Positions 3,719-61,672 of a stretch of DNA of 64,000 nucleotides are shown one piece after another (positions within the stretch are counted from its first letter, which is position 1; each line of letters begins with the position of its first letter). This DNA is from Cyanidioschyzon merolae (lineage: Eukaryota). The notes beneath the pieces were generated by a model that was not told the DNA's origin, made no database searches, and was given only the letters and a program-made list of their open reading frames with translations. Where the stretch lies: NCBI GenBank assembly GCA_000091205.1, contig AP006483.2. One strand, 5' to 3'. The position numbers and the translations under genes are program-made.

Positions 3719-3757
3719 TTGCTGGTGCTGAATCGTTGTTGTTGTCGTTGTTGTTGT
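3719..3757. repeat. (GTT/GTC)n microsatellite
   Basis: gttgttgttgtcgttgttgttgttgtcgtcgtcgg; this produces the spurious poly-Thr/poly-Cys ORFs in the track. Confidence 0.8.
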
Positions 3758-3917
3758 TGTCGTCGTCGGAGTGGTATATCCGTGTATGGGTATCGCGAGG
3801 CAAGCGGTGCTCGAGTCCGGCGCGAAGATGCAGCTCAATCGCCAGCTGTTGGTGTATCCTGTCATGAATCGTTTGCACGACAATCGAGTCAGTGTAGAAC
3901 GGCAAGGGTCTGCTCAT

Positions 3918-12691: not shown

Positions 12692-13864
12692 GTTAACCAG
12701 GTACCCCGCTTCCATTTCCTTCCGACATGGGTTATTGTGACCTCGAGCTGTGACCAAGTGTACGGCACGATCGTGCTGACCATCGCGATACATTCACTTT
12801 CACATCGCTCGGGTATTCGTTTAGGACGACTGCATCCTCTCGCTGCATTGCAAACAGAGAGAATTGTTCTTTTGCTGCACATGTTTGCGCACACTGTTCA
12901 AGCACCCAGAAAGCGACTTCATCAGACGCTTTCCGCTGTTATACCCGGTGAGCAGTGGGAGCGGCTCTGCCGCAACGAAGGCGTCTACCCGGGGACACTA
13001 TCGCGGTACGAGCCTGCTCGCGTGAGTCTAGTTGGTACTCCGCGACCAACGGAACTGCATATCACGCCCAGAGCCGAGGACAGGGACTCTGCTTGGGTTA
13101 TCCTCCGCAAACCCGGCGATCGGGATGCAACGCAGTTCTACTCACGCGCGCTGGATGCGTCTACGCTGGCACAACAGGGCATGGTCTACGCCCAGGACGG
13201 CTCTTTCTGCTCGGGAAGCGTGTTGGTGCGCTCCGGGGAAGGTGGCCTCAGTGCGCTCATCGTTGAACAGAACATAAACCACTGGGAGTCGGGGCGTATC
13301 GCAGCAAGACGACGCGTCGTCGTACATTATAGGGGCCGGGAGCTCTCAGCGCTTTCGCTTTATCGCGAGCTGGACCAGAGTGACTATGTAAGTGAGCGAC
13401 CGAGAGCTAAGGATTTTGTTCGCTTGCTTGAAACAGGAACAGGAGCATGGCAAGGTCGAGCAGCGTACGTCTATGCCCGTGATCAGCGGAAGGATGCCCA
13501 CTTCAACACGGACGCCAGTTTGAGCATCGAGGAGCTTTCAATGGATGGTGTTGATGCTGGTGTTCCAGCGGTTGTTACGCGAGTCGCTGCACCCGGTTTC
13601 GAACGCGTCTCTCGGGGGCGCCTCGATGAGAGCCAGAACAAAATCGTTTTCGATCCTATTCATCCGAATCTGCAGTATCAGATGCGTTTTCTCGGGAGAG
13701 ATTGCACAGTATTAGCACCGCATGCCGTGCCGCTCGGTCAAGCGTTTCTCGTAGAATTCGCGTGGCTTGTTCGACCTGGTCTTCGAAGAAGAATCGTCAG
13801 GCAGTATGACTCCGATGGCATGTACGAGGGATCCGTCTTCATCGAGGAAATAAAGCAACCCTAG
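12296..13864 (+). CDS. Hypothetical protein with a Cys/His-rich N-terminus (CHQCEAC...C-x-C...C) plus a basic stretch; first ATG at ~12368; 522 aa from the GTG start
   Basis: Longest ORF in this region. The first 133 codons lie inside IR copy B and are duplicated (then truncated) in copy A as ORF 3666-4313(-). No recognisable family. The codon-1 'M' is GTG in the ORF track. Confidence 0.4.
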   Translation: MERVPSHLEVVFEEGGFVSIRGAPMTVECHQCEACTDAVLKRDENAKQSVHRNWCTCMQCVDNRRKHRHWSLNAAFDTHRLLITKLKERRRPAYAKPNTRQRRTQHLWNKGPLKATVGTRAERIPIVRVYSRVNQVPRFHFLPTWVIVTSSCDQVYGTIVLTIAIHSLSHRSGIRLGRLHPLAALQTERIVLLLHMFAHTVQAPRKRLHQTLSAVIPGEQWERLCRNEGVYPGTLSRYEPARVSLVGTPRPTELHITPRAEDRDSAWVILRKPGDRDATQFYSRALDASTLAQQGMVYAQDGSFCSGSVLVRSGEGGLSALIVEQNINHWESGRIAARRRVVVHYRGRELSALSLYRELDQSDYVSERPRAKDFVRLLETGTGAWQGRAAYVYARDQRKDAHFNTDASLSIEELSMDGVDAGVPAVVTRVAAPGFERVSRGRLDESQNKIVFDPIHPNLQYQMRFLGRDCTVLAPHAVPLGQAFLVEFAWLVRPGLRRRIVRQYDSDGMYEGSVFIEEIKQP

Positions 13865-22143: not shown

Positions 22144-22394
22144 CCTGACCCCAGTGAATAGTCTCTGGTTTGTCCCCAGGGAAAGCAGAGCGTGCCGGAA
22201 GCGTTCCCAAGAAGTAACGGCACCTGCGCACCGCTACACTGTCTGTCTGTCTGCAGTAGCGACGCCCTGAGCGCCTGCCGTGGACGCCCGGCACACGACA
22301 GCCGGAACGAGTACGCCGCTCACAGGGCGAGTCCACGCCTTGTGCGTAAATGTTTGGTTACATCTAGATCCACTGCGAGGAAGCGTTTCCAATC

Positions 22395-24518
22395 ATGGGA
22401 AGAAAACGTGTGAAGCGTTCACAGCTTTCTGGCGGTCATGGCGCTGGGTCCGACGATGCGCTGGTACAGCGTCAGCTCCGGGTCGAGGGCACTGCCGGTG
22501 TTCTCAAGTTCCAGAGCAGCGATGCACAGTACGCGCTGGCCTCCTGGTGGCTTACACAGTGGAAACAGGTCACGCGTAGCAAGCTGGACGCAAAAGGAGG
22601 TAACGCGCGAGACTCGATTCTAGAAAAACTGTGCAAACTGGCAAACGCGGAGCACCTGTGGGAGCAGCCACCGCTCGAGACGTCCGTCAGTGCCGCGGAC
22701 TGGGGTTCGCTCTTTTCCCAGATGAAGAACGATCCAAAATACTTTTCCTCAAGCGTGTATACGGCGCTAAGTATGTGGATGCAGCGAGCAATGACGCGAA
22801 CAAAGGCGGCCGATTCGAGCGAGCTTGCGACGCTCGTCGAGACACTGACTTGTTGGGCGACCTGCGACGCACGCGCTCTGGTTCCTCTGCTTGCGTACTT
22901 TGCAGGCACCGCAGTGGATGCTACTGACGACCGGCTCCAGCATGAGCTACGTGAACGCAGTTGGTCGATCCTAACAGCGGACACGTCGAGCATGGCCGAG
23001 CGACTCCTTGCCACCGAGGCCCTGAGCATGCTCGCCATCGCGGATCCCAGTGCCTTGTTGTACAGGGCGTTGGATGCTCTTCATGAACTGGAGGAGCGTG
23101 CCCTGAGTCGGTGCTCTGAAACCCCCGAAGCGCCCAGACATGACACAGATGATGCCGAGGCGGCGTTCACAGTCGCGATCATGCTCAGGGACAGGCATCG
23201 CGCCCTGAGCAGGTTGGTCGCCCAGCTGCTTCGGCACTGGCATCGACTATCCGAGGCACCGTTGCACCTGCCCGCACGGCACCTGTCCTTCAGGGCTATC
23301 AGCGAGGATAGCATCAACGTTTACAATGACGTCAATGGTGCGCTGCCGCTGCCACTGGAGCTATGGCTGCATGTACGCCCAGCATGGCATCAGGATATCC
23401 TCCTGATCTGGGAGGCATCCTTGGAAAGGTTCGGCGTTGCAACGCTTCCCGTGGTAACCAAGTGGCTCACCGACGCGGTGCGCTGTTGCCCAGGGAGCTC
23501 CGCATTGCACCGCCTGCTTTACCAGGCGTGTTGCCGAGTCGGGATCGCTGCAGCACCGTCTGTGGAACGCTACTTGGTGACGTATGTGGCAAAGCGTCTT
23601 ACGAATCTGAATGAGAGCGCAAGCTCCCAGACGAGCTGGTGCAAGCTCATCATCGCCGTTTATCGATCCCCAGCAGCGTGTGCGATGCTATCGTCGGGTA
23701 TCACGCAGGCGTTGGCAGAGGCGCTTCGCGTTCTCCTTTCCCAGAATGACGTCGCTTTTAGGGAGCAGAAGACCTGGGCGGCACGAGCACTTGTCGTGAT
23801 GGCGGGTACAGCGCGGGATGCACACGCGCTGGAATGGGTTGCCCGCCGCATCCAGCGCGATAGAGCGTTGCGGCACGAGGCAGGGGCGCTTTTCGAGGCG
23901 CTCTCGCATCCACGCGGCTTTCCGCTCGAGTCGTTTGCAACACAGTCGATTTTACTCGATGCAAAGCACCAGAACGGGGAGCAAGAGGCTAAGCGGAGAC
24001 CCGCTCACGGGCTGCGTTCCACTCCGGCGCTGCCTGCAAGTCGCGGCGGGGCGCATACCGACGAGCCGGACTGGCGTTTGCAGGTCCCGGGCCAGTCGGA
24101 CTCGGTGCGTACCCGGCCAACCGCGGATGCCGCTCTAGCGTCAGACCAGAGCAGCGACCTGAAGGCGGCGGCATTGCTCGATGCGACTCCGTCGTCCGCA
24201 CAAGGCGAGAATCCTCTGCACCCGGAGACGCTTTTCGCGAGCGTGCGCCAGCCGACCCGAACAGAGGTACCAGCGGTGCAGGTATCATGTGCGGTAGACG
24301 AGAATTTGTATGATCAGGGGAGCATGGCGTTGTGCGGCAGCGAGCCGCTGAGGTCAACGTCGGATACACTGGAGGACCACGATGGTGCGAGCGACAGCGC
24401 TTCGGCGTCGTCGATCGAAGCGCTCGTTCAGCGGGTTGTGGATGCAAGCCCGTCACCCAGCCCTAGCTCAGAGCAATGGAGCAGTGACGACGATTCCGAG
24501 GCATCCTCCTGTTCCTGA
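22395..24518 (+). CDS. Hypothetical protein, 707 aa, helical repeat-like body with an acidic Ser/Asp-rich C-terminus
   Basis: Long ATG-initiated ORF with protein-like composition; no family recognised. Confidence 0.45.
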   Translation: MGRKRVKRSQLSGGHGAGSDDALVQRQLRVEGTAGVLKFQSSDAQYALASWWLTQWKQVTRSKLDAKGGNARDSILEKLCKLANAEHLWEQPPLETSVSAADWGSLFSQMKNDPKYFSSSVYTALSMWMQRAMTRTKAADSSELATLVETLTCWATCDARALVPLLAYFAGTAVDATDDRLQHELRERSWSILTADTSSMAERLLATEALSMLAIADPSALLYRALDALHELEERALSRCSETPEAPRHDTDDAEAAFTVAIMLRDRHRALSRLVAQLLRHWHRLSEAPLHLPARHLSFRAISEDSINVYNDVNGALPLPLELWLHVRPAWHQDILLIWEASLERFGVATLPVVTKWLTDAVRCCPGSSALHRLLYQACCRVGIAAAPSVERYLVTYVAKRLTNLNESASSQTSWCKLIIAVYRSPAACAMLSSGITQALAEALRVLLSQNDVAFREQKTWAARALVVMAGTARDAHALEWVARRIQRDRALRHEAGALFEALSHPRGFPLESFATQSILLDAKHQNGEQEAKRRPAHGLRSTPALPASRGGAHTDEPDWRLQVPGQSDSVRTRPTADAALASDQSSDLKAAALLDATPSSAQGENPLHPETLFASVRQPTRTEVPAVQVSCAVDENLYDQGSMALCGSEPLRSTSDTLEDHDGASDSASASSIEALVQRVVDASPSPSPSSEQWSSDDDSEASSCS

Positions 24519-27500: not shown

Positions 27501-27787
27501 GCTGCCCTGGCTGTTGACAACACTTGAACGCATCCGAAGGCGTCTGGTGAAGTGCACTGAGCGGAACCGGTACGGAACGCTCCGCAGGGGCCCTGACCTG
27601 AGCCCTGCCCTCGAGTTACCTGTTCTTGTGAGGAGCACCCAAGGACGCGAACGTCTGCCTCGAAGCTACCGAGGCGCTGTACTCTGGAACGTACGCTAGA
27701 AGGAGCCGGGACACCAGATTCACAAGTTTTTGGTTCGGTTTCCCAGGACGGTACACCGCTACGACTAGCCGGCTCTCTGGCTGTGCT

Positions 27788-29135
27788 GTGATGCTGGGGT
27801 TTTGCGCCGGTTGGGCACGTCCCCGAAGCACACATCGACGACGCTCTTTACCTTCGGACGCATGGGCGCTGACCCCTGACCCGTTGGCTCGACAACAGCA
27901 ACGCACTTCATATGCGGAAAGGAGCGCCGCCAAGCGTGGATGCACCCGGTGGTTGCGAGCGGCGCAAGCTGGGGATCCTGCAGCCTGCCCGGCGACGTCG
28001 ACCTCGTTGCAGGCAAGTACGAAGCTGATCCACACCGCTGGGGTAGAGCGAGTGTACCTCGTCCGCTGCAGCCGCGTTTGGGTCCCGCCAGCGTGCCGGA
28101 CGCGTGCTGCTGGGCTGCATCTTGCTATGCAGCCGGTGGCAGCGTCGCCTCCCTCTGGACAAGTAACAGGGGTGACTCGCTGGGAGCCGAACGTGCTCCT
28201 CTCAGCGGTCTTCCTGGGAGCACTCGTCATGAATATGGGTCTTTGGGTATGGAAGAGGCTTTCTTTGAGGCCTACCCGCACTGATGACGTCGTATCTGGC
28301 CAGGATACTGAACCGGCATTGGATCCCGACTACGCAGACCAGCAGCGTGCAGGTACGCGGCCAGCAGGCCTCAAGACCAGAGTCCGACAACCAGCTGAAC
28401 TGGACCAGGTCTCTGGGCCAGCGGCAAGTACAGACACGCCCAGTGCAGACGACAGCGAGCGTGTCGGGCTCGGTGAGACGCTGCGTCAGCTCAACAAACG
28501 TTTACGAGAGCTCGAAACGCGGCTTGCAGAGCAACAAAAGAGCAACCAAGCGCTCGAGCGCCAGAGTCGAGAGCTCGAGCAGCGGTATCGTGCAGAGAAA
28601 GCACGAAGGCAAGCTCTACGGAAAGAGCTTGCACAAATCGAAACAGCCTATCAACAATTGGAGAAAAGACATGAGGAGCAGATGGCTGCCCTGCGATCCA
28701 AAGCAGAGGCACAACTACAGGGTCTGAGGCGTACAGCCGAGAAGCGTTTGACGACGCTGCAGACGCAGCTTGAGGAGAGCATGGTGCAGGCAAAGAAATG
28801 GCAGAATCGGGCACAGGTGCTTTCGGCTCAGCTGGCATCACTTTCGGCGGATATGGAGTCGTTATCGGAACGCGAACAGGAGCTTCGGGGCCAGCATTCG
28901 GAAAAGTCACAGCGATACGCTGCGCTTCTGCGTGCATGGAAGCAGCTGCGTACAGACTACGAGGAGCTTCAGTCCAAACTGGACGCACGAACAGGGATGC
29001 TAGACGCCGAGTCCGAGGAGCGCGCCCGACTCGAACGACAGAATGCGCAGCTTCGCCAGCAGATCCAGGCGTGGATAGAGCATCACCGGGCATCCATTCC
29101 GTTCCCGGATGGTGCACCGAATGACGCTGGATCAT

Positions 29136-29179
<44 letters not shown>

Positions 29180-29629
29180 CCTGCGACAAGTGCTACGAAA
29201 CCGGAGAAGGGGCCCTCGGAGTCGGTAGCGTCCGAGACGCCACCTGCCAGCCCCGATGCGTCGTCGAGGATCCCGAGGCATCCGGGATTCTCTGGGCCTG
29301 CAACGAGCCGCAAAAGGCGAATCCGCGTCGATGCAGTCGATCACGTGCTCGAAGTGGGTTTCTTTCGGCAGGAGTTTAACGCTCCTGATACGACATCGTC
29401 AGCCGTCCATCCAGACAAGGCGCATTCGAATGAAGGCGTATCTGAGACCACACCACAAACGATGGCAACGAGGCCCGCCGAGCCCCATCCACCTACCAGT
29501 TCGATGCGAGCAAGTGTTTCCGTCAGCGCAGCAGCAGAAGAAGCAGCAGAAGAGACACGGGATGCGCGACCGCTCGAGGATACGGCTAGCGAGCAAGCGA
29601 GTGGCGTCGAGAAGCAGGCCGCCGATTGA
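27788..29629 (+). CDS. Transmembrane plus long coiled-coil protein (golgin/TANGO1-like architecture) with a poly-Ala tract; the true start may be an internal ATG (~27791 or ~28124)
   Basis: Hydrophobic helix 'VLLSAVFLGALVMNMGLWVW' followed by ~300 aa of heptad-like charged repeats ('LRELETRLAEQQKSNQALERQSRELEQRYRAEKARRQALRKELAQIE...'), then (A)17 encoded by (GCA)n, then a Ser/Pro-rich tail. The first codon in the track is GTG. Confidence 0.5.
29135..29178. repeat. (CAG/GCA)n microsatellite encoding a poly-Ala tract in the coiled-coil protein
   Basis: cagcagcagcagcagcagcagcagcagcagcagcagcagcc. Confidence 0.9.
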
Positions 29630-38884: not shown

Positions 38885-40709
38885 CAGTAGTAGTAGTCGA
38901 ATGTTGCAGCGACGCGTAAAACACGCGCAGTTCCTCAAAACGAGCAGCGCATGCGGCTGCGCTTCGTGTCGGAACGAGGGAGGCGATAAGCTGCCACCGG
39001 GCTGCACCTTTGGAAGCACCAAAACGTCGCAGCGCCTCCTCCAGTTGCCGCTGCTCACTGACCGTCCAGGAAGCAACATTCGGTGGCGTCAGGCTGGCAA
39101 TGCGTTGACCAACGCTCTGTGGCGCCCGCATGAGCGCCTGCGCTTGAGCCCGTATCTCAGCCGGCGTATACCGGTGCTGCAACGCTTCCGCGATGCGCGT
39201 CCAGCGGTCTCGCGTACCAGCGGGATACTTTTTCAGTGCACGCGAGAGAAGCGCCAGCTCCTGCGCACTCCATGCATCCGCATTTGCAGCGCGCTGCGTA
39301 GACGCGGCATCAGGAGCAATCGTCGCTGCCCCATTTCGGCAACCGCCCACACCGCATGACGTTTCGTGCGATCCCTCTGCGTCTCCGCTGAGCGATGACA
39401 ACCGCGACGACGAGTTAGAGCCGGCAGTCGTCGCGAGTGCAGCTGCATCGCCACCCGCATCCATGGTGGTGCTTCCAGCGTCTGCGAACTCGCCGCGATG
39501 CCTCTGATGCCTTTCGAGCGCATCAGCGCGCCCGGCACGTCCGGTACCCTCATGAACACCAGGCGGTTGTACCAGTGTCTGGCACTGTGCCCCAGGCGTC
39601 ACTCGATGATCCGTGGACGCATGCGACGCCACTGCGTCTACTTCCACAGACGCAGTGCGCAACGCAGGGCGCACAGCTTCTCCATAGACGGCTGCATTCT
39701 GAGATAATGACGTTTCCGCGGGATGCTGCGCCTGCGCAGGCGCTCCATCCGCTGCCTCCAGCCACTGCTCCCGAAAGCGTCGCCGTGCTGCCCGCTCAGC
39801 CGCTTTGCGCTGGCGCTCAGCTTCGCGTATCCTGCGCATACGCGGATCCAACCGATAACTCCGCTCGACAAGCTGCCGAATACGTGCGCGCTCCAGCTGC
39901 TTCCGTCGCAGGCGCGCTTTGCGCTCCTGGCGTTCATGAAAGCGACGTTCCTCGCGAGTCATACTCTGATCCTCCCACAGCTGATCCGCATCTTCCGAAG
40001 GGAACTCGCGCCACGACTCAAACGCTTGCCAGAACGCGTAAAACGCTAGCACTTCATCGTCTGGTGTCGAGGCATCGCCGAGAAGCGGCACCGGCTGCCG
40101 GCAACTCCAGCGTGCATTGCGGCGAAACGTTGCCCCGAAGACTGCGTAGAACGCAGCTTCATCGTGCGCATCCTCTTCATCCGGGACACTATCGTCAAAG
40201 TTTCCGTCCTTCGAGTCATAAATCAGGCGACGTTGCGGGTGTAGGAGCACCCGCAGCGCCTGCTGGAGTCCCTGGAATACCTCATGCGCCTGCTGACGTG
40301 CGTTCGGAGACAGACGCACCACTCGATCCGGGTGCACAGCAAGGGATACCCGCTTATACGCTTGTCGAATATCGTCTGTGCTGGCCAGGTATCGAATGTT
40401 TTCCAGTCCCAAAAGCCGGTACCAGTCGCCTTGGCGAACAGCGATCAACAATGCGTCCAGCTTTGCCGGTTGTGGTGCGTTATCCGACACGCTCGGGTCG
40501 TCGTGCGTGCCGGTGGAGTCGGCTTCAGGCAACGCATCGCGAAGGCTGGACTCAAAGCACTCGAAGAAGGTACGCCCAGCGCACTCGAGGCGCCTCGGGC
40601 GACAGCGCGCTGCGGACGCGAACACCGCACTAGCCGCTGATGTCGTGCTAGCGTACGGAAGCGCCCGCCTGGGTCCCGTCTGTGACCGGGATCGGCTCTC
40701 GTGCTCCAT
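38739..40709 (-). CDS. DnaJ homolog subfamily C member 2 / zuotin-like (J domain plus two SANT/Myb domains), 656 aa
   Basis: J domain 'DWYRLLGLENIRYLASTDDIRQAYKRVSLAVHPDR'; a charged zuotin-homology region rich in R/E/K ('ERKARLRRKQLERARIRQL...'); two SANT-like repeats 'WSAQELALLSRALKKYPAGTRDRWTRIAEAL' and 'WTVSEQRQLEEALRRFG...RWQLIASLVP'. Internal poly-Ala from (GCT)n. ATG at 40709. Confidence 0.75.
38849..38893. repeat. (AGC/AGT)n microsatellite (codes the poly-Ala run in the zuotin-like gene on the minus strand)
   Basis: agcagcagcagcagcagcagcagcagcagcagtagcagtagtagtagt. Confidence 0.85.
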
Positions 40710-40727
40710 GCATGGAAGAGGAGTCTT

Positions 40728-43700
40728 TTACCAAGGCACAAAGTCTGCAGGGATGTTCTCGAAAACCCCAATGGTGCCGTCGTGTGCTGCAACGACGACC
40801 ACCAGGCCGTCAGAAGTGGACGTTGCGCGCAGCAGTGCCGCCGTACCAGTTGCAGACGACGACAAGGGCGTTGCTGCTGCTGCTGCTGCTGCTGTTACTG
40901 GTGCTGGTGCTATTTTCGCACGTGTTGGGTAGATGGAAGTGGACGGGCTTCGCTCGATGACGTCCAGTCGATTGGTGCTGCGCTGGGGTGCAAACACCGC
41001 AGCTGTAACGTGCGCTTCACCGAACGGCATGAAGGCCTCGAAACGGTCGTTACGGTAACGACGAATACGAGGCAGTTGACTCGAACTGGTACCGTCGCGG
41101 CTTGTGCCTGCTGCTGCGCTGCTGGACGGATTCGAGGTCAATGCGGATGCGGATGCCCGTTCCGACAGCATACGGTCTGGATAGTACTGCTGCTCGGTAC
41201 GGGCCGCATTCGTCGTGCTACTCGGGTTGTTGGTGTTGGTAATGGGCCCTGAGTGCCGCGTCTGCGGGTTACTCGCAAGTGCCGCTGACGCTTCGGGTGC
41301 CATTTCATGAGCTGCAGCAGCGGTGCCGCCACCTGCGTCACGCAACCGGGGCGTGCCTTTCGACCACTGGCTTAGGTGCAAGGCACAACCGGGTGCGCTG
41401 TGGTGTCCGGCTTGCTCGTACAGCACCGTATTCCAGATGTAGACGAGCCGATCCTCACTAGCCGTGATCACGTACCGAAAATCGTCACTGAAACTTGCCC
41501 GGATATGGTTCCAAGTACAGGAGTGTCCGACGAACTTGCTTACAATGCGCAAGTCCTGAACCCGATACAACCGTATACGACTGTCGTTGGTGCTGATCAA
41601 TACTTCGTAGTGCTGAGAGCTGTTGCTGCTGCTGCTGCTGCTGCCGGTGTTGCTGCTGCTGTGTGCACTCGGTGCCATGGTCGCTGCAAACTCGTTGCCG
41701 GCGTTCTGTCCAGGTACGAAAACGTTGGAGGTCGTCGACACCGCTGGAGCGGTACTGCCGCTGCCGCTGTTGGTGCCTCGACCAGGGCCTCGATCCGGTG
41801 TTGGCATCATGGCGAAACTGGTGATTTTGCTGCCCTTGCTATTGCGTCCGCGACGACTGTGCACCTCCAGGGTCGTGATGTACTGGAGAGCCCGTTCGCC
41901 CTCCTCGAAACGGACAACGTTGTAGACTTTGCACTCACCGCGATACGTGCCAACGAGCGCCTGCTCGCCGTTGGGTGTAAACCCACAAGCGGTTACGAGG
42001 CCCCGCACTTCTGCATAGTCTGAAACGTGCCGCGAGCTAATGTTCCAGAGACGAATACGCTCGTCCAAAGAGCCACTGAGGAAGAAATTCTCGTTCCGCG
42101 GATGAAAGGCGACACAGGTTACAAAATCGGCATGCAGGAACTTGCGCAACACCTGGTTGTAGTCTACGTGCCAAAGACGCACAGTTTTGTCCATAGAGCT
42201 GGATAAAAGGAAATTATTGGCAGACCACGCGACACAGAGAACGTCACCCCCGTGTCCGCGAAACACTCGATGAGGCTCTCGGACCTCGAATAGACAGCGT
42301 GCGTACAGACGCTCGGGTCCGTCGTCCACGGTGACCGCTGCTCCGTCGCTGCTTTCCGGAGGCGGGGTCAGCAGCCTTTGAAACGCTCGCGCGCCTGCCG
42401 TAGCCGGTGAGCGCAACCAGCTGGCAATCTCCAACAAGTCCGCATTCGAATAATTCAGCGTGTGCGGCTCGTTCTGCACTTTCCAAACCATGATCACGGC
42501 GTCTTGACCGCCAGTCGCCAGATATCGACCATCGGCAGAGAATTCCATACTCCAGACAGGTCCTGTGTGCGGCCTGAAGCACTGTACCAGACACATGTTG
42601 GCGGTGGTGTTAGCTCCTCGCGACTTGTTCGGAGCATGGACGCGCACAAAGCGCTGTGCAACACGGAATTCCCGAAGCAGCCGTTGGTACTCGCGCTTGT
42701 TCAAAGCGCTACCCTTTTCAGGGAACTTGAATAGAAAGCGCGGCCTACCGAGTACGGTCGTGTCCTCAGTGATAGCGCGTTGCGTCGCTGTACTGGCAGT
42801 AGCTGGTGCGGCGGCTTTTGTAAGCAGGCCCCGGTCGAGGCTGCCCGCGGGTGACCGAAAATCCTCGACTGTGTCGTCGACTACGGAGCCGAACGCTTTT
42901 CCATCGCCAGCGAGCGGCGTCTCTGCGGCCGCACCGGCGGTTGATGTCAGCGATGTGAGCGAGTCTGCACCGGCTTGCACTCGCTGTGTATTGAGCATTG
43001 CACCGTCTTGCCTGGTGCGGGTCGCTGCCGACTTGCTGTGCTGCAAAGCCGCGGCTTGTGTCGAGGATATCGAGGGCGACGCATGCGTCGGTGCTGTTTT
43101 CGCGCGCGGTAATAATGAAAATGCTCGAATTCGCCCCAGTGGCGTCGAGGAAAAGGTACGTGAACGGCGACTTTTCGTACCGGAGCTTGCGCCCGTCGGA
43201 TCGTCCTGGTGGGGGTCACGACGCTGCATGACGGAACGTTGTCGCCGCATCAGTTGCTGCACTGTATCCGCGGAAGTCATCTGGGCAACTTCCTGCTCAG
43301 TGAGATACCGTTCTTCACCGGTATCCAAGTTCTTAATAAGAAATTCTACACCCTGCTGCGGCTTCCTCGAATCACCCGCGGATCGCTCTCTCATCCGAGT
43401 GATCACTTGAAACCCAGCTTGATCCACTTCAGCAGTACCGAACTCTAGAAGCAGATCTCGTCGACTCGAATCCGGAGACGGTTTGCGCAGTGGCTGGGTT
43501 AGCCTGTGCAGCAAACTGCGTCCCGACTCTGGGGCAGTGCTGAGGCGGCCCCTCAGGTCCGTGTCACCACCTGCACTGGTGCCGATTGGTGCAGCTAAAC
43601 TGCCGCTTCCGCTCCTTTCGAAAGCCGGCGGGTACGTGGCGTCATCGACACTGCGGCTGCGATGCCGCTGACCGGTGCTGGAACCCGAGCGCTGATGCTC

Positions 43701-44852: not shown

Positions 44853-45509
44853 CTACGTTTCTACCTTGAGAGGCTGACCGACAAAGTTGTCTCTCGTCAG
44901 TTCCAGGAGTCTCTTCTCCAGCACGGCATAGCTCTTTATATTGATAGAAGCACTAAAGTCTCGGTTCACGCACTCCAGGCGTTTCTCGTCGCCGCTTGTA
45001 CTCACCAGTGCAGGGAGTCCTCGAACCTGTGCCCTGCTTTCCATTTCCTGCCCTTCCGTCACCGCTCCGTACTTTTGGATATCCCCAGGGCTCCTTTGGC
45101 ACTTTTCCATCTCAACCCTCTGAAGTGTACACCCTAGCTCGTGATGAATGGATGACGTTCCGAACGCATTTATCAGTATCGAAACGAAAAGGTGTGCGCA
45201 GTCCTTGTACGCTCGTGTCGACGGAGCTGGTATACAACCTTTTGTGGACGCCCAGCGTCCTGATCCGTATGCTAATACGAGCATTTTACGCTTGTCCTCC
45301 TTGAGGGCCCTCAACTCATTGAAGAACTTGTCAAATGCACGCTGCTTTCCTCTGTGCAGACGCATATGCAGACGAGCCCATCTGGTCTTGGTGTACTGTT
45401 GCCACAGCGCCTCCCAATGAGCAGTACAAACTTTCATGAATTCCAGAAAAGCCTCAAAGTCCGCTCCTCGGCTAGTCACCTCGCTCAAAGCTTCCAGGTG
45501 CTCTTTCAC
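44853..45509 (-). CDS. C-terminal exon/fragment of the TnpB/Fanzor-like nuclease (RuvC-III 'NRDFSASINI', Cys-rich zinc-finger-like region)
   Basis: See the mobile_element entry. The frame is closed 3 codons upstream by a TAG that I read as the AG end of a candidate intron. Confidence 0.45.
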   Translation of the reverse strand: MKEHLEALSEVTSRGADFEAFLEFMKVCTAHWEALWQQYTKTRWARLHMRLHRGKQRAFDKFFNELRALKEDKRKMLVLAYGSGRWASTKGCIPAPSTRAYKDCAHLFVSILINAFGTSSIHHELGCTLQRVEMEKCQRSPGDIQKYGAVTEGQEMESRAQVRGLPALVSTSGDEKRLECVNRDFSASINIKSYAVLEKRLLELTRDNFVGQPLKVET

Positions 45510-45585
45510 TCCTCGATTCTATTCCTTAATTTTTTCCTCGCGTTCATTTTTCCGGATTCTCGATCGTATCTTGCTCTCGAGAAAT

Positions 45586-46056
45586 TTAAAAGACACATGT
45601 CTTCTGACGTAAGCTGCCGTCAGTGCCATCTTCCGCACGCTTGGGTGCTGCGATGGTCATGATATTCGTGTCCCCAGGGTCCGCGCCAACGACATTGTCG
45701 TTCTCCTGGACCTCCTGCATCACAGGATCCGCCTCGTATATATGTTCATGTTTCGTCGCGGGCGAAGCCGGGGACGGAACTGGACGATCTACCTTCAAGC
45801 ACTTATAATCTACAAATATGGCTACTCCATCACTTTTGATCATCCCAGGGAATAACTTTTGCTTGCTCACTTTGAGGCGTTCGAAATCGAACATATTCTT
45901 CCAGTACGTCTCCCGGTTTTCACCGGAGAACTCGAAATTCCTTACATCGAACTCTGGACTGATCTCCTTCATGATGCCATGAAGGACGCTCGAGTCGATT
46001 GCCACAATATCTGACTTGACGGTGCACAACGGAGCGACATGGAAGCGCTTACCCAT
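45586..46056 (-). CDS. Central exon/fragment of the TnpB/Fanzor-like nuclease carrying the RuvC-I motif (GADPGDTN)
   Basis: See the mobile_element entry. Its reading frame is also open for >40 codons upstream of the listed start, overlapping ORF 46056-46286 in another frame. Confidence 0.45.
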
Positions 46057-47042
46057 TAGGGCAGCCTCCCGTCTCTCCGACTCTTCATTTTTTCCCCACT
46101 CAGCTTCATCTCTGCCTTGCGTTCGAGTTCTCGGTCCAAAAACACAAAATACCGTAGAATGAGGCGATAGTATCTTTCCGTATCCTTTTTCAACTCTGAT
46201 ATCTTTTCTACTGGATTCGCTAGCCCCAGTACCGCACGACGCTCTTGAATAGACGCACGGATTCCAGAAGCTTCATTCCTTCTCATGTGTGATGTCTTCT
46301 TGTCTACGGATTCGATCCTCTGTTCATTCTCCCTATCGTTCGTGATGCCATCGATGGTGACCCATCTCGCCCTGTGAGGCAGGGCCGCCTATAATGCAAA
46401 CGCGGTGCGTATCATGAAACGTTCGAGGTTCATAGTCATATCGCTCATCAGGTACGTGGGGTACTTCATCGCTCCGTAGGTGCGAATTCGCCAGTCTCCC
46501 CTCTATCGAGTACCGTTGAGGCGGTATTCGGCGTACTTTTTGTGCAGTATACACACTCGCGCATTTTTCGTCGACATATCCCAGGTGCTTACCATCCGGT
46601 AGCGTATAACGGTCTCGTTGAAAAATTCCTCCGGAACCTCGACTTTTTTGGTGTCCGTCACGTTGTTGTATATCTCTTTTACCAAATGCACTAGTACTGG
46701 AAAAGCCTTTACAATACTCAAGGAGTACGACTCGACACGGTTTCCGATGGCCTCTCGCAACTTCTGCTTGTACGGATCCTTGATACATCCAAGAAAACGA
46801 GCTTTCACTACCATCTCGTCGTACTGTCGTCTTTGATGCAGGCATAGACGTCTGGGATCCTGTCTCAGCTTCTTGGACGTGTCTTGTTCCTCTTTGCTCG
46901 GCACTGTTCTCCGTTTTCTTCCGGCAGCCGGTGACACCAGGCCTCCAGGATCCTCTACTTCCTTCTCCACAACTTGCCTTTTTTCTATAATTTTAGATTG
47001 AATGCTCTTTGAACGCCTCTGCTGTAAACAGTGTAAAATCAC
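46056..47042 (-). pseudogene. N-terminal region of the TnpB/Fanzor-like gene: one reading frame running 47042 to ~46056, interrupted by two in-frame TAG codons (~46503 and ~46400), then a +/-1 frame change into the RuvC-I exon
   Basis: Hand translation shows ORFs 46503-47042 and 46056-46286 share a frame. The sequence between them ('RGDWRIRTYGAMKYPTYLMSDMTMNLERFMIRTAFAL*AALPHRARWVTIDGITNDRENEQRIESVDKKTSH') is protein-like apart from the two TAGs. These could be unspliced introns or decay. Confidence 0.35.
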
Positions 47043-49230: not shown

Positions 49231-49842
49231 TTACCTGGCGCTTTCCGCCGCTTCATCCGCCTGCTCCGCGAGCTCAACACAGTGTCGAACTCCAGGCTGC
49301 GGCGGGTTCAACGCAGGCTCTGACGACTTCGAGAACGACCAGTCCAGGAACGCCCCAAAAGCACCGAGCACCGCGCAGATACCGACCCCAGTGCCGAGCG
49401 AGCCAGCGCGAACCCCAAACGCGCTGCCCGCGAGACAGCCGCCTATCGCGCTATTCCAGGGGTCTTGTTTGTCACCACGAAGCGCTCGTGCTGAGTATTC
49501 GCCCACGACGAACAGACCGCCAATGCTGGACAGGAAACCAGCGTGCGCAGCTACGGTGCGCCACGGTGACTGCAGAGCCGGGTGCACAGGCGCACCGCCT
49601 TGTGCGCTCGTCGCGGATGTGAAGTCTACAGGCCTGACGCTCCTCGAGAGACCCTGGAAGCTAAACGGGGCACGACGTGGACGCTCGCCCGGTTTCGTGG
49701 CTTGGAACTGCGCGAGCGGGTTCTGCTCGTAGCTGTGCCAGTAGACGATGGAAGCACCCATTGCAGTTCCTAGCAGAGCACCTGTTACCATGCTCTGTAC
49801 CAGCGTAGGCAAGAAGCCTGCATCATCCTGATCCGAGGCCAT
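49231..49842 (-). CDS. Tim17/Tim22/Tim23 family (PRAT) mitochondrial inner-membrane translocase subunit, ~203 aa
   Basis: 'RGDKQDPWNSAIGGCLAGSAFGVRAGSLGTGVGICAVLGAFGAFLDW' closely matches the Tim17 core 'R.KEDPWNSiiSGalTGA.LA.R.G...' with GxxxG packing motifs. ATG at ~49842 lies inside the longer track ORF 49231-50190. Confidence 0.6.
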   Translation of the reverse strand: MASDQDDAGFLPTLVQSMVTGALLGTAMGASIVYWHSYEQNPLAQFQATKPGERPRRAPFSFQGLSRSVRPVDFTSATSAQGGAPVHPALQSPWRTVAAHAGFLSSIGGLFVVGEYSARALRGDKQDPWNSAIGGCLAGSAFGVRAGSLGTGVGICAVLGAFGAFLDWSFSKSSEPALNPPQPGVRHCVELAEQADEAAESAR

Positions 49843-50862
49843 GAACCGATCCCTCGTCTCGGTGGTAAGCGCCGCGGTGCTGCTGCCGCACAACTGCAGC
49901 TGTGCGCGATCTGCTGCCGTCGAATGCCGTCGACGACGCGCTGTGCCTGCGGGAACGCGCAATGCCCTGCAGACGTCATTCGTTTGGGCGTCGTTGCTCC
50001 GGAAATGGGCGTCAAAGGGTACGCTCCTTGCGACGAGCTTGCTTGTTTTGGTCCCTGATACTGTGCTTAGCGTTTCGCGGAACCCGCTTCCGCATACATT
50101 CCCAGAATGGCGACGACGGCGCAGGAACACGGACGAGGTCCGAGCGTCCGAGAATGCCAACAAGCGGTAAGCGTTTCTCCAGCGCTTCAAGTCTCATTGT
50201 TGTACCGCGACGCGACCAAACATACCACGTACTAGAAAAGAGTACGAACGCGCCCTGAGCTGCATATCGTGACCGGAACACCCATGGCGCTGCAGCACCA
50301 CGTTCGCTAGGGGCTTCAGTTTTCCGATCGTATATAGAGATGTTCTCGGGGATGCGTCCAGTTGTCATATCTACGGAGGATCGTGCCAGGCACATATTCA
50401 TCGCTCCGAGCACGCATAATCTGCCTATGCTTCGCTTTATCCGTATGTGACAGCATGCCGATCAAGTGCCCCGTACCCATAAAGCCAATCCCCATCGAAG
50501 CCGTATTTTCATAGCACTCGCATTCGGAACGCTCCCAGGATAGACGCACACTCCAGGTAGGACGTGTACGCTGTACACACGAGTCTATGCATGCACGATT
50601 CACTGATTTCTTCGAGCAAATGTTCATGCATGCATGCATGCACTGCGATGGACACGTCACCCGCAGCCTCGACGAGTGCACGCATCGTGCGCACGCATCG
50701 TCGGGCAACGGCTGTGCGTACAGCGCTCGCTGCGCGCACACGCTCCCTCCGCACTCATTGATTCATTCTCTTTCGTGTTTTTCACGCGACAACGTGCGTG
50801 CGCTACTGTACAGGAACGTGCGCAAGAGCGTTCCGGTACACCCCGGAGCACTTGGTGCACCC

Positions 50863-51702
50863 ATGGGTAACCGACCCTCCACGGAGCGACGGCTGGCGGG
50901 TGATGCAACTCGGCAACCGCCACCGCCGCCACCGCCTGGCAGGTCTGTGAATGCACGCAACGGGCCGACTTCATCGACGTCGACCACGTCAGTACCGTGG
51001 ATGCCGCAACAAGCTCCAGGCCCTGCATCTGAGTCTCCGCCAACCTTTACAATGGCGGCAGGCACGCGACACATATACGCACCGAGTCTGCCGATACGGC
51101 CGCTGACCGAAGTACCCTACTATCCGTACCTGCGGTATCGGGTTGTTGTCGAAGACGAGTACGGTTCGTTGCTCGTAGTGACACGGGAGGGTCTTCGTCG
51201 TCAACGGGATGCCATTCGAGTTGCTTGTGAAACGGAAGCAGATCCTTACGCACTCATCGCGCTGGCCACGTGGCAGCAACGCAAAGCACGCGTGAGTCCA
51301 GTGGAGCTCGACCAGGTTTGTCCGCCGCAGCGCTTCGCATCGCTGGAGGCCAACGACGCCCACACTGTCGAGACTACAGCTGCGCAGACTTGATCTATCT
51401 GTCTGGAGAACTTCGCACCGGAGTCTGCTGTTCGAAAACTGCCCCGATGTGGTCATGTTTTCCATGACGATTGCATTCGCGGTTGGGCATGCCACAAGCG
51501 TGCACAGTGCCCGGTGTGCCGAACCTGGGTTCTTGACGACGCTGACATGTTGCGACGTTCCATGGCCGAGGCAGCGATCAGGGCTGAGCTGCAACATGCA
51601 GCCCTTGTCGAAGAACGAATACGGGAGTACTTGCGTCGTCAGGTTGCTTTATCCAGAGCATGCGGTTGCCGAACCGATACACAGGTTCCGAACGGAACCT
51701 GA
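50863..51702 (+). CDS. RING-H2 finger protein (probable E3 ubiquitin ligase) with an N-terminal MGxxxS myristoylation-type motif. The reading frame contains an in-frame TGA at ~51391-51393, exactly where the first RING cysteine is expected.
   Basis: Track ORF 50587-51393 and the downstream ORF are in the same frame (both positions congruent to 1 mod 3). Across the TGA the translation reads '...VETTAAQT*SICLENFAPESAVRKLPRCGHVFHDDCIRGWACHKRAQCPVCRTWVLDD'. Reading TGA as Cys gives the canonical 'C-x2-C...C-x-H-x2-H-x2-C...C-x2-C' with the typical CxICLExF and LPxCxHxFHxxCIxxW context. Confidence 0.55.
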
Positions 51703-51713
51703 ACAGTCTCGGG

Positions 51714-53703
51714 TCAGAATTTGTTTTCTGAACTGAACACACACTCTCGAAGACGCGCTTTCAGATGCTCGAAGGATTCCCTTTCATCGCGAACCTGTCT
51801 TACGAGTCGGTACCAGCGACTCGGAGCGGAGTCGGGTGATTCCATGGACGCTTGTGATTGCGGATCATTCGGGGACTGGCGATTTTCCGCTGGTAACGCC
51901 CCAGCAAAGCCCCACGAGGCAGCACAGCGCGTTTGCTGCGGCCAAAGCGTTGCAGGAACGAGCATATCCGCTGCCCCAAGCTCCGTTAAATGACGCACAA
52001 CCCAGCCCGCCAGCTGCGTTTGCAAATAGAACGATTCATGCTGCTGGTTTGCGTCTGTCATGGTAGCTTGCAGGGTCGTTACGCACTGCTCTGTGATCGT
52101 TGCGATTTGATAACATGTCTCCGCGTGGCGCGAGTTCGTTCGGACATCGGCCCAGCGTCGAAGCGCACTGGCCCAGCTCGCCCAGCGTGAGGCAATACCC
52201 GCAACGCCACTTGCGGTGAAGCTGGTGTCTGTGGGCGCGTCACGAGTCGATTCCGCAGCCACCGTTGGCACATCCGTCTCACTCAGCTTGAGAAGCACAA
52301 TCGAGAGCGGTAGCATCGGCATTGGCTCAGAAATACAGGGGAATGAGATGCACTGGGTTTGGAACCAGTCCCACAGAATGTCGAAAGAAACGTTTTGTGT
52401 ATGGCGGACAGCAAAACATGCAAAGGCAGATTTGCGGTTCTCGTACACGAGCACTGTATCGTGCAAATGTTTTGTGCACGAAATACCCTCAGGCGTTGCT
52501 CTCTTTGTCGTCATTGCTGACGTTGGTGTTGGTGTTGTCGTCGCCAGTGGCGATAGCATCATGAGCACCACCAGCGGGAATCGTCGTTGGCGCGCAAAAT
52601 CCGTGGACATCTCGGTCGCTTTCGATCGAATCACTTGTTTGAGCGGAGACGCGCACACTGATGGTGCGTCACCGCGCACCACGGCCAGCAGACCAGCCAG
52701 GTTATCGGGACACATGTTCCCTGGCAAAACAAGCTGCAGCTGTTGCCGCTGATGCTGCGCATACGACTCGGAATCATCTTGCTCGTTGCATCGGATACAG
52801 AGGTCCTGACAGAGTCCTTGGACGAGGTCTTTGCACACAATGTCGTGCGGGGGCCACCAGACACCAATCCGCAGGTCTCCTGCTAGGGATGATGCCAGAC
52901 GCAGTACCGCGAAGGTCTCAGGTGGCGGCGCAGTTTGCTGCACGCGCGGGCTTGTTGATGGATGCTCGGGCGCTGCAGCGGCCGCGACCGGCGGTAACGG
53001 CAGCGACACTAAACGAGTCAGCGGACTGGGGCGAAGTACCAGCTCTTGTACGAGGCGATCACGAAGCAGGCGTTGTGTCTGTGCGATGGTGGCTTCTTCA
53101 CGGAGCTTGGAAGCCGCCTGGACCGCACGCTCAACAGCGCTTTGATACGCAGCGATTTGGCGGAGTAGGCGGTTGATTCGTGGGCCAACCTCTGAAGCCG
53201 GTCGACTAGCTGCGCTCAGTTGCGCAGCAGTCTGTTTGAGCTGACCCAAAACATGATGTGTTTGCTCTAGACGTGATTCGAGCTCGGTCAATTGCTCCCA
53301 GAAAGATGATGGTAGTGCGCCACCACGCTCACGCAGATTTTGCGCAAGATATCGTTCTAGCATGAGACCAGCGAGCACCAAGTACTCGATGGCATAGGCG
53401 GGCTCGTGGCGCGCCAGGAGCCACTGCGCATCCAATTGTTCCAGGGCTGCTTCGACTTGCTCATCGTGTGCTGCTTCCATTCGCACCAGAGCAGCGCCCG
53501 TGGGCGGTATGGGCGGCGGCATTGCCGTCACCGGGCGCTCGCGTGGCACGTCACTTGGTGCGAGGGTTTTGTCATCGACAGCCACCGAGGAGTGCTCCAG
53601 CCCAGACTCGCGCCCTGTTGGCGTTGCTCGCGTCTGGTGTGGTGTCATCAGTGCTGGGATCGCTTCAATAGGCGCTCTCTGGACGGCATCCGAGGCCATT
53701 TCT

Positions 53704-53742
<39 letters not shown>

Positions 53743-56516
53743 TCTGTAGCCTGCCTTTGAGCCTTGTTGTCGAACTGAAAAGACGCGGGCGCTGGCTTCG
53801 TAGGCGGCACGATTCCTGTCTGCCCTGTTGACGACCATGGCGAGCGTGCAACCGCACGCTCCGATACCTCCTCCGGCCGTATGGTGCGTTGCGAGGTCGG
53901 TCCCATCACCGCTGCGGCAGCTTGTACTGGAGCGTTCACAGCTGCCGTAGCAACTGCGTTCCATTCGCGCCGCCGGCTGCCTTCAGCTGCAGCTGGCTGT
54001 TGCGCATCCGCGGCATAGGCGTCTGCGGCAGAAACTTTGCCTCCTCCACTGATAGACGCCGTCGGGGTGTTGGTCCCAGTTTGGAGCAGCAGCGGCCGCG
54101 CATCCTGCAACCTCTGCGCTCGTTCCGAGTCGTGCACGTCTCGGTCAACACCAGCAGTACATTCATGCATCTGGGGCGTTCCGACTTGTGAGCCAAATGC
54201 TACCGGCTCTTTTGTTGCTGCTTCCGGAGATGGACGCGGTTCGAGAAGCGATTGCGCGTTGCGGACACATGCAGTTGGCAAGTCCACCGAGATGCCGTTG
54301 CCACTGCCGCTGCCGCTGCTGCTGCTCGCCATCTCGTTACGAGGGCATGCGTCCGACCACTTTTCGCCACCAGCAGCGCCAGGCACGCCGCTTCTCAACT
54401 CCACGCTCATCTGATGCGAATCGCTTCTATCCTGAGAAAACGGCGCCGAGTTCGCCGTTGCAGGCACGGCCACGTGCGGGTCTTTGGAAGCCACTTGTCG
54501 TTCGGAACGCTGTCTGGCGAGCTCAGCAGCTATACGCTCCCGCAAACACTGCTCCCGGGATGCGGGCGGCACCTTGCCTTGGATAATTTCACTGGGTTTG
54601 AGGCCCAGCGCCTTGCGTTCGACACAACGCTGGCCTACGAACCAGTAGAGCGGTCGCAAGGTCGCCTGTGTGGCGTCGGCTGTCTTTGCACGCAGTCTGG
54701 ACACGTGTGGCTCCAGTGTCGCAAGCGCGACGCTGTCACCGTCGACGGTAACGTGCAAGTCGCAGCTCCGCAGGAATGCTGCTGCATCGTCATCATCATC
54801 AAAGGCAAGCAACGACACCAGCGCGCTGAGAGGCCATACTTCCTGACGTGCTGCGGCACGAGCCAACTGCTCCAGCGCCCACAGCCGCATCATACCAAAG
54901 TGCCGATGCATCATACACGCTTGGAGGAAGGAGACTTGCGCGAGCAATCGACCGAAAAACGCCTGAAAATCGCCAGCTTGACGAGCCCGAATCACTTGCA
55001 GTGCAAGCTGAACTTGCTCACTGTGCAGTGTCTCCGGATCGAGTTCGCGCAGGATCTGGATGACGGCGTCGTTGCGGTTCTGGAGTAATAGATAGTACGC
55101 CTCAAACTCGCTTCGATGGGCACTTACAGAACGACCCTGTCGAGCGGCTTCTCGATAGAGGTGACAAAGCGCTAATAAACATTTGTCAAGCTGCTCCATA
55201 TTCTGTTTTGAGGAGAAGACCTCTGGTCCAGTGACGGCCAATCGATACTCGGCGAGGATGTGAAAGCGTACGCACTGCTCATGCACCCAGGCACAGTTGG
55301 TGTCATAGATACCCTGGTACGTGAAATCCTGTCGAATACTGCGTGTTCGATCCCGTAAGAACGCGTAGACTTCGTGAAATGGAACATCTTCACGATCCAC
55401 AATATGCTGCAACAGGTATTCCATTGTCTGACGCAACACGTGCGGTGGGCGCACTTGTTCCGGACGCACGGCTTCTGCACCGGCAGCCGGTCGCGCAAAC
55501 TTTTTCACCATGAGTTGTGGGTTCGGCTCGAGGGTGCGCTCCGGGTTCAAACTCATTTCGAGAACATGCACGTCACGTTGCATCCGACGTTGGTGTTGCT
55601 CCTCCAGGGGACACATCATCAGGCAGGTACCCAGGAGCGCAGGTTGCGCATCCAGCGGCAACGGCAGCGCAGTGGATGCGCTGCTCCCAGCCTGTTGCTG
55701 AGAGTCTCCGTGCTCCCCAGAAGCGAACACGGGCTCCCGATGCTTCGTCCAGGGATCGGTTGTGGAACGAGCGTTTGGTGGCAGGGCGTCGCTTCGGAGG
55801 GTCTCGTCGTGCTGAGCATTCAGGTCTTCATGATGGGCGTCACTGTGTGCAGTGGTTGTTGCGGGCATCGATGCTTGAAAAACACTGATACGCTGCTCTG
55901 GAAACGTACCGACAGTGGAAGCTGTTCGTGATGCGGTTTCCCAAGTCTCGTTCAACGTCCCGGGTAGTGCTTGATATCCACTGGTCTGGGTCGGCGGCGG
56001 GAAAGCGGCAGCTTCTGTGGTCGAACGAGTTATCGACTGCAGGGATGATTTGGCGGCGTTGACAGATGCTCCTGCTGACGTTCCCGTACGCTCTTCGGGA
56101 ATCATCGCTGGTCCGAATGCGTTCTGAGGAGGATACGCAGCTTGCCAGCGCTGCAGGGACGCTCGTGCTGCAGGCGGGATATAGTAACGAAGGCGAAAGT
56201 TCGGTCGGTTTCCCAGCGCAGAGGTGGTCGTGTTGGGAGCCTTACGAAGCGCTGCAGCTGCAGCTCTTTGCGTCTGAAACTCTATGAGCGCGCTCCGTTT
56301 CTGCGGACGCACCTGCACGCGGGTCACTTGTTTGGGTACCACCTGTTCGAAGTATGTGCGAAGGCGCTCTTCATCGCAGTACGCTTCAGGGCACTGGAGC
56401 AGCAGCAGTGTCCGGCCACGGTACCGCACCTGTCCGGTTGGCGAGAGGTAGATCTGACCTTCATCGGGTAGCGCTTCGAGTACTTTGCTTCTTTCGTGGA
56501 ACTCAGCGGTGTCCAT
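51714..56516 (-). CDS. SAC3/GANP-domain protein (TREX-2 mRNA export complex scaffold, GANP/Sac3-like), 1600 aa
   Basis: SAC3/GANP/Thp3 homology block 'GTCLMMCPLEEQHQRRMQRDVHVLE...MVKKFARPAAG...RPPHVLRQTMEYLLQHIV...FHEVYAFLRDRTRSIRQDFTYQGIYDTNCAWVHEQCVRFHILAEYRL' preceded by an N-terminal RRM-like segment. ATG at 56516. Stop is 11 bp from the convergent RING gene stop. Confidence 0.75.
53701..53740. repeat. (GCA)n microsatellite inside the SAC3/GANP gene (poly-Ala on the minus strand)
   Basis: gcagcagcagcagcagcagcagcagcagcagcagcagg. Confidence 0.85.
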
Positions 56517-60877: not shown

Positions 60878-61672
60878 ATGCTGTCCACAAACAATGATCC
60901 GTTTTATCGTTTCAAAGCTAGCGTGGAGCAGCAGTTGACTGCGCTCGAGACAAGCTTACGACAGACGAGTCCCAACGGCTTTGGGCTTGAACTCGCTTCT
61001 CATGATGGCTCGCTATCAGTCGACGGATCTTCCAACTTTGAGGCTAGCAAGGCGAAACTGAAAGAGAATCTGCGAGAGCTTTCCGAAACCGTTCGTGTTG
61101 TTCGAGGCAACCGCGAACGTTTCCCTATAACGGACGCGGAGCTTGCCGAACGAGAGCACGCCATTCATGAACTCTGGCAGCGACTCGACGCTTTGGAGTT
61201 GTCAGGAAAACAACCTGCTGTAGTGGACTCTCTTTTCTCCGCGCGACCTGGGTCGCGCTCGCGTCAGCGAGACACGGAGCCGTTTGCGAGCACCGCGTCG
61301 ACCGGACGACCCCTGGACTACGCAGCACAAAAGGCAGCGCACCGAATTGAGCGCGAAAATGAGGTATTTTTGGATCAAGAGCAAAAAGAGCAGCGAGTTT
61401 TGATCGAACAACAGGATCAGGACTTGGAAGATATGTTGTCTGTCGTGAAGAGGCTCGGCGATATGGGTCTGGCGATCCGAAGTGAGGCTTTGCGGCACGT
61501 TGAACGCATCGATGCAGTCGATTCGAGCATGAGCGCAGTCCAGTCTCGCTTCAGGCAAGTACAGTCCCGCTTGGAGTCGCTTATTCAGGAGACGGGACGG
61601 GAACGTTTATGTTCCTTGCTGGGACTGTTTGCGGTATTCGTTGTTCTGCTATTGTTGGTACTCTATACCTAG
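60878..61672 (+). CDS. Qc-SNARE, syntaxin-6 / Tlg1-like (syntaxin-6 N-terminal domain plus t-SNARE coiled coil plus C-terminal tail anchor), 264 aa
   Basis: N-terminus 'DPFYRFKASVEQQLTALE' resembles the Syntaxin-6_N start. The SNARE heptad region 'QDQDLEDMLSVVKRLGDMGLAIRSEALRHVERIDAVDSSMSAVQSRFRQVQSRLESL' has a central Gln. It ends in the hydrophobic anchor 'LLGLFAVFVVLLLLVLYT'. Confidence 0.7.
   Translation: MLSTNNDPFYRFKASVEQQLTALETSLRQTSPNGFGLELASHDGSLSVDGSSNFEASKAKLKENLRELSETVRVVRGNRERFPITDAELAEREHAIHELWQRLDALELSGKQPAVVDSLFSARPGSRSRQRDTEPFASTASTGRPLDYAAQKAAHRIERENEVFLDQEQKEQRVLIEQQDQDLEDMLSVVKRLGDMGLAIRSEALRHVERIDAVDSSMSAVQSRFRQVQSRLESLIQETGRERLCSLLGLFAVFVVLLLLVLYT

Follow-up and report, generated by a model that had tools for sequence, protein, structure and literature searches.

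The gene recorded as CMA129C in Cyanidioschyzon merolae strain 10D bears an in-frame TGA where its relatives encode the first zinc-ligand cysteine of a RING-H2 finger, and we infer, with a probability of roughly 0.6, that this TGA is a real, recent nonsense mutation private to 10D. A change of one base from C to A in the 10D lineage, turning TGC into TGA, would have produced an ordinary stop codon in an otherwise conserved gene under purifying selection. The intact gene encodes a protein of approximately 279 amino acids, comprised of an MGNRPS start, a conserved N-terminal domain of unknown fold, the RING-H2 finger and, at its C-terminus, a helix. Translation in 10D would halt after residue 176, and the truncated product would lack the E2-binding RING domain; the 10D allele would thus represent a recent loss of function and a nascent pseudogene, relieved by trace near-cognate readthrough at most.

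The TGA codon and the RING-H2 finger

The stretch of DNA analysed here (the window; 64,000 nucleotides) contains the in-frame TGA at plus-strand positions 51391-51393, flanked as gcg cag act TGA tct atc tgt ctg gag. An ORF at 50587-51393 and a RING-coding stretch that closes with its own stop codon, TGA at 51700-51702, lie in the same frame and are split by this one codon alone, as the first-pass annotation had read from the sequence. Counted from the MGNRPS start, the TGA is the 177th codon. Among the sequences compared, only the window has A at 51393; all sister strains carry C here, giving TGC, and Cyanidiococcus carries T, giving TGT. The 176 codons that precede the TGA (50863-51390, plus strand) are the sole translated part if it terminates, while the plus-strand stretch that follows (51394-51702) encodes zinc ligands 2-8 of the RING, followed by the conserved helix of the C-terminus. 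This latter stretch is intact and carries no window-private change, and its RING is left unannotated in the 10D reference.

When codon 177 is read as Cys, the translation matches the Pfam family zf-RING_2 (PF13639) at residues 176-220, covering model positions 2-44 of 44 with 46.8 bits and E = 3.4e-12, above the gathering cut-off of 27.3 bits; the precomputed Pfam annotation of the orthologues P0001-P0003 lists the same hits. The solved RING-H2 domains of RLIM (6w7z), RNF126, rice EL5, AMFR and RNF165 were matched with E = 2.5e-8 to 1e-7, and in each the first zinc-ligand Cys aligns on the TGA codon, bearing out the earlier proposal that the stop occupies the position of this ligand. The further proposal of a canonical RING-H2 finger, should the TGA stand for Cys, also held, with one small correction upon re-reading of the ligand spacing: with Cys177 it is C-x2-C-x15-C-x1-H-x2-H-x2-C-x11-C-x2-C, which lies within the RING-H2 consensus used here (C-x2-C-x(9-39)-C-x(1-3)-H-x(2-3)-H-x2-C-x(4-48)-C-x2-C). 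As written, the 10D allele has a stop at ligand 1, encodes 7 of the 8 ligands and translates none of them, the predicted product ending before any ligand is reached, and so departs from a pattern that is complete once codon 177 is Cys, the residue found in every relative. The family to which the gene belongs is thus of the RING-H2 type, but the sequenced 10D allele is not a functional member of it.

The finger resembles those of RLIM/RNF12, RNF126, Arkadia/RNF165 and the plant ATL/EL5 proteins in its C3H2C3 ligands, in the T-C-S-I-C-L-E-x-F motif at ligands 1-2 and in the conserved Trp residue that follows ligand 6. Unlike the ATLs, the CMA129C protein is without a transmembrane segment, and unlike the RLIM, RNF126 and ATL-type ligases in general, the 10D RING is kept from translation by the TGA. 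RNF11 and ZNRF1/2 are examples of RING-H2 ligases with N-myristoylation, and serve here as a lead only. These proteins share with CMA129C an MG-x-x-x-S/T start, a Pro-rich linker and a C-terminal RING-H2 finger, while no similarity was detected outside the RING in a comparison made through Pfam and PDB searches. The protein is predicted to be a RING-H2 E3 ubiquitin ligase, and it is confined to the red algae of the Cyanidiophyceae, its putative ligase activity following from homology to solved, active domains.

Gene structure, relatives and neighbours

By exact look-up, the 268-amino-acid translation of the ORF at 50587-51393 is BAM78819.1/XP_005535105.1, which the 422,616-bp record of strain 10D chromosome 1 lists as CYME_CMA129C, a hypothetical protein; no mention of CMA129C was found in the literature searched. 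The 5' part of this ORF (50587-50862, plus strand) is a spurious, non-coding extension. It holds, a short way before the RING gene, an (ATGC)n repeat (50621-50645) that varies in length and shifts the frame among strains, with a length difference of 8 nucleotides in 19 of 33 sister contigs, and these changes account for the unrelated predicted "N-termini" of P0001, P0012 and P0015. In the Cyanidiococcus locus (L006) and in an 81%-identical relative (L005), the protein starts with MGNRVT, and the reading frame is closed by a stop 6 codons before this start in L006 and 17 codons before it in L005. Since the repeat shifts the upstream frame and the relatives have stops just before MGNR, the comparison places the true start at the MGNRPS of 50863 and not at 50587. 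Thus, the 268-codon ORF of the first-pass annotation stands as coding sequence over 50863-51393, and its portion at 50587-50862 does not. Measured from 50863, the protein has approximately 279 residues in relatives.

The M-G-x-x-x-S/T motif of N-myristoylation is present at the true start in both forms, MGNRPS in the window and MGNRVT in L005 and L006, and the protein is probably N-myristoylated; the MGNR start itself is conserved only inside the Cyanidioschyzon/Cyanidiococcus clade. The earlier suggestion of an N-myristoylated RING-H2 ligase starting at 50863 thereby gains from the conserved MGNR-x-S/T start and the stops upstream of it, the modification being a prediction from the motif. The start is followed within 50863-51390 by a poly-Pro and low-complexity linker and by a conserved domain (VPYYPYLRYRVVVEDEYGSLLVVTREGLRRQRD...). 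The poly-Pro tract at 50917-50937 (codons 19-25) is itself variable, consisting of seven Pro residues in 10D and ten in P0018 and P0019, while some strains differ at site 50927 and read PPPLPPP. The conserved N-terminal domain, YPxLRYRxxVxDxYGxLLVxTRDGLRRQR, found no Pfam or PDB match, and protein and profile searches returned no match outside Cyanidiophyceae for either this domain or the C-terminal helix. An AlphaFold model built on a three-sequence alignment (mean pLDDT 50.6, pTM 0.27) was too poor for a fold search. The Cyanidiococcus yangmingshanensis gene model F1559_002244 (L006 at approximately 3700-3780, VWRR01000020.1) ends in ...EERIREVRLPD; the genomic ORF of L006 runs on ...EERIREYLRRQVVLSRGCGCRTEAQA, like that of the orthologues, so the model is probably in error at its 3' end.

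Every relative examined encodes Cys at codon 177, which answers the call of the first-pass annotation for an alignment of orthologues at this site. TGC or TGT in orthologues was also the refuting observation named there, and with it in hand the more exotic of its readings, selenocysteine and readthrough, fall. All 46 fetched sister-strain loci that span 51393 have C at that base and hence TGC, these loci deriving from approximately 30 JGI, Logan and ENA samples with some contigs fetched more than once. Their identity to the window is mostly 99.2-99.6%, with two distinct contigs at 95.5%. The codon is likewise TGC in the 81%-identical relative L005, and it is TGT in Cyanidiococcus (L006). At the protein level, P0001, which is 100% identical over the read-through query, the 81%-identical P0002 and P0003 (C. 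yangmingshanensis F1559_002244) all read ...QTCS(I/V)C..., and in the 11-member 90%-identity cluster only the reference protein of 10D ends in ...AAQT. Two remote orthologues, P0042 and P0044 (41-48% identity), came from a profile search over 1.84 billion representatives, and both have Cys177 along with the N-terminal domain, the RING-H2 finger and the C-terminal helix. All eight zinc ligands are invariant across five orthologous lineages. Comparison of these sequences indicates that Cys177 is ancestral and universal among the genomes examined.

Eight distinct CDS haplotypes occur among the first 43 sister loci. Apart from 51393, their polymorphisms amount to synonymous changes at four sites (50952, 51447, 51570 and 51588) and a single nonsynonymous one (P22L, in the poly-Pro tract). 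Such silent-biased CDS polymorphism, together with an architecture kept down to 41% identity, marks a gene that functions in the species and is held under purifying selection. The synteny is also kept in all relatives, with the Tim17-family gene CMA128C (49231-49842, minus strand) upstream, the RING gene, and a convergent SAC3/GANP gene (51714-56516, minus strand). The RING stop (51700-51702) and the SAC3/GANP stop (51714-51716) are 11 nucleotides apart, so the 3'UTRs of the two genes each overlap the other coding sequence in antisense, in agreement with the earlier remark on the convergent SAC3 3' end. Within the minus-strand SAC3 coding sequence, in-frame (GCA/GCT)n length polymorphisms occur among sister strains at 53703-53704 and 54295-54308, and the predicted SAC3 products are 1,596-1,611 amino acids long.

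The genes of the window are eukaryotic, compact and apparently intronless, with a GC content of approximately 57%. A syntaxin-6 homologue lies at 60878-61672, and the names given in JGI metagenomes to proteins identical or nearly identical to it ("ABC-type phosphate transport system auxiliary subunit" and "outer membrane protein TolC") are artefacts of prokaryote-style annotation applied to eukaryotic contigs. The ORF at 12290-13864 is BFA1-like (BFA1_C and DUF3598_N), a biogenesis/assembly factor of the plastid ATP synthase, which points to a photosynthetic eukaryote. An example of extreme intergenic compaction is seen on the minus strand at 40709-40730, where the stop of a WD40 gene of 1,146 amino acids (TAA, 40728-40730) and the ATG at 40709 of a zuotin/ZRF1-like gene (DnaJ, ZHD and two Myb domains) are 18 nucleotides apart in the same frame. 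The two would merge into a 1,867-codon ORF if the TAA were sense, and this TAA was rejected as a second in-frame stop of the kind found in CMA129C, these being two genes that are called separately on sister contigs. Long ORFs with no or marginal Pfam match at 22368-24518, 27632-29629 and 44853-46845 are called consistently on sister contigs, with products of 215/218, 156, 76 and 170 amino acids conserved, and may be lineage-specific genes.

Private variation in strain 10D and the accuracy of the reference

The first-pass annotation had listed a sequencing error and a very recent nonsense mutation among its options, and the TGC or TGT of the orthologues supports both without separating them here. 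Their relative merits can be approached through the variation that surrounds the TGA, in the region shared with at least five sister contigs (40626-61702). In these 21 kb, 22 substitutions are private to the window, or approximately 1e-3 per bp, of which the A at 51393 is one; at a further 273 polymorphic sites the window shares an allele. By class, 10 of these private changes fall between genes, 5 are synonymous, 6 are nonsynonymous and 1, the TGA itself, is nonsense. No window-private indel occurs in the 21 kb, the indels found in coding sequence being in-frame repeat-length variants. With no private indels and with substitutions biased towards silent sites, the local reference sequence looks clean, and the pattern looks like the real divergence of a genuinely distinct 10D haplotype.

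The truncated 268-amino-acid product is recorded on the reference contig only. Exact look-ups in Logan, ENA and JGI assemblies returned neither the hypothetical 371-amino-acid TGC product nor the 10D-specific alleles of small flanking ORFs, and a look-up of orf162 likewise led to no assembly derived from 10D. Contigs reached via CMA128C, via the syntaxin gene and via the cluster members P0017 and P0018 have the non-10D allele at every private site that they cover. A 25-mer bearing the TGA gave 0 metagenome hits, a weak result given that a control with N at the variable base matched just two contigs.

The main rival to a real mutation is faulty base calling or assembly in the 2004/2007 Sanger reference, whereby the true 10D codon would be TGC, the gene would be intact and CMA129C would be mis-annotated at both ends, cut short at its 3' end and drawn too long at its 5' end. 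This is a serious competitor, albeit the less probable of the two. All other genomes examined encode Cys, and the RING part past the TGA is undamaged, an observation that a very recent mutation would fit equally well. Errors also escape selection and are hence over-represented among apparent nonsense changes in conserved genes. The published sequence does differ from that of 10D descendants: two re-sequenced derivatives (approximately 190x) share 288 SNPs and 81 indels relative to the published nuclear genome, among them a known one-base indel by which the reference disrupts a conserved gene, CMO228C/Tic236 (Sato et al. 2020; PMC7291098). The Tic236 artefact resembles the present case as a single-base difference in the published 10D sequence that truncates a conserved gene, but it is an indel, whereas the change in CMA129C is a substitution. 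The original 10D culture is gone (PMC7291098).

Set against an error are the clean appearance of the surrounding 21 kb and the rates themselves. The 288 shared SNPs over 16.4 Mb amount to approximately 1.8e-5 per bp (PMC7291098), a candidate rate of reference error that is some 50-fold below the private divergence of 10D of 1e-3 per bp. If nonsense changes are assumed to be depleted 5- to 50-fold by selection, a rough weighting of these two rates would favour a real nonsense mutation over an error by roughly 1- to 10-fold. A real, strain-private nonsense mutation accordingly remains the preferred reading, on the strength of this weighting.

Possible recoding of the UGA codon

Programmed stop-codon readthrough, or another form of recoding, would allow 10D to make a functional full-length ligase in spite of the stop codon. 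Near-cognate decoding of UGA can insert Cys, Trp or Arg at low frequency, and the frame past the TGA is intact. The context, however, is UGA-U without a CUAG-type motif, and the relatives simply encode Cys, such that no recoding signal has been selected. Basal near-cognate decoding could yield traces of full-length protein, with nothing pointing to programming. The readthrough option of the first-pass annotation therefore lacks both a promoting context and a counterpart among relatives, and programmed recoding is most improbable. A genome-wide reassignment of TGA is excluded by the other genes of the window, whose ORFs reach 1,616 codons under the standard code without an in-frame TGA, and treating TGA as sense merges no other Pfam-supported genes in the window. 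Excision of the codon with an intron was also rejected, as relatives at 99.5% identity have an unbroken ORF that lines up with this one from end to end.

The least probable of the explanations, with hardly any weight left to it, is that UGA encodes selenocysteine and that CMA129C is the missing selenoprotein of C. merolae. A UGA aligned to the Cys of homologues is the classic signature of eukaryotic selenoprotein genes, and the host has partial selenocysteine machinery: C. merolae is reported to keep SBP2, EFsec, SecS, SPS2 and tRNA-Sec, most of the machinery, with no selenoprotein found as its client (Lobanov 2007; PMC2375036). The check on machinery proposed in the first-pass annotation was answered from the literature, with these five components reported present and PSTK reported missing (PMC6627142). 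A later survey again listed no C. merolae selenoprotein genes (PMC7539508), making two surveys, one with a Sec/Cys-pair search of this genome, that found zero selenoproteins (PMC2375036; PMC7539508).

The search for a downstream SECIS element that had been proposed alongside returned nothing: Rfam covariance models gave no SECIS over 50400-53400 at E <= 10, and a scan for the SECIS core and helix over 51394-53000 gave 0 candidates against a shuffle mean of 0.065. No tRNA gene was found in the window. Between 51394 and 53000, the sequence differs from that of the TGC strains at just two window-private bases, 51874 and 52301, so the TGA did not arise together with a novel RNA element. The position is that of a structural zinc ligand and not of a redox-active site. 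Moreover, the UGA occurs in the 10D reference only, with Cys in the 46 loci and four further lineages, and is neither conserved nor seen to alternate with Cys over evolutionary time; a TGA private to one strain cannot account for machinery retained across the lineage. CMA129C thus differs from eukaryotic selenoprotein genes in the lack of a SECIS, in the one-strain allele, in the zinc-ligand position and in the reported absence of PSTK from the host, and the selenocysteine option found no support. It is similarly very doubtful that UGA177 is decoded in 10D at all to give a functional RING ligase, be it as selenocysteine or as Cys by efficient near-cognate readthrough. Were selenocysteine nonetheless the true reading, CMA129C would encode the first C. 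merolae selenoprotein and the first case of selenocysteine as a RING zinc ligand, and even then a TGA found in one strain would not explain why the lineage keeps its machinery. As an explanation of that retention, the tempting lead offered by the TGA of CMA129C is closed off.

A recent nonsense mutation in an otherwise conserved ligase gene is an ordinary finding, and its significance is mostly practical, as either a knockout in a laboratory strain or an error in a reference. The reference entry for CMA129C describes a 268-amino-acid hypothetical protein with a false N-terminus of 92 residues and no RING, and its correction is warranted either way. Should the TGA prove erroneous, a single base of the reference has to be corrected. 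If it is real, the standard laboratory strain of this widely used model alga would be a natural knockout of a RING ligase, which would matter for work on ubiquitination in C. merolae 10D and for its comparison with wild Cyanidioschyzon.
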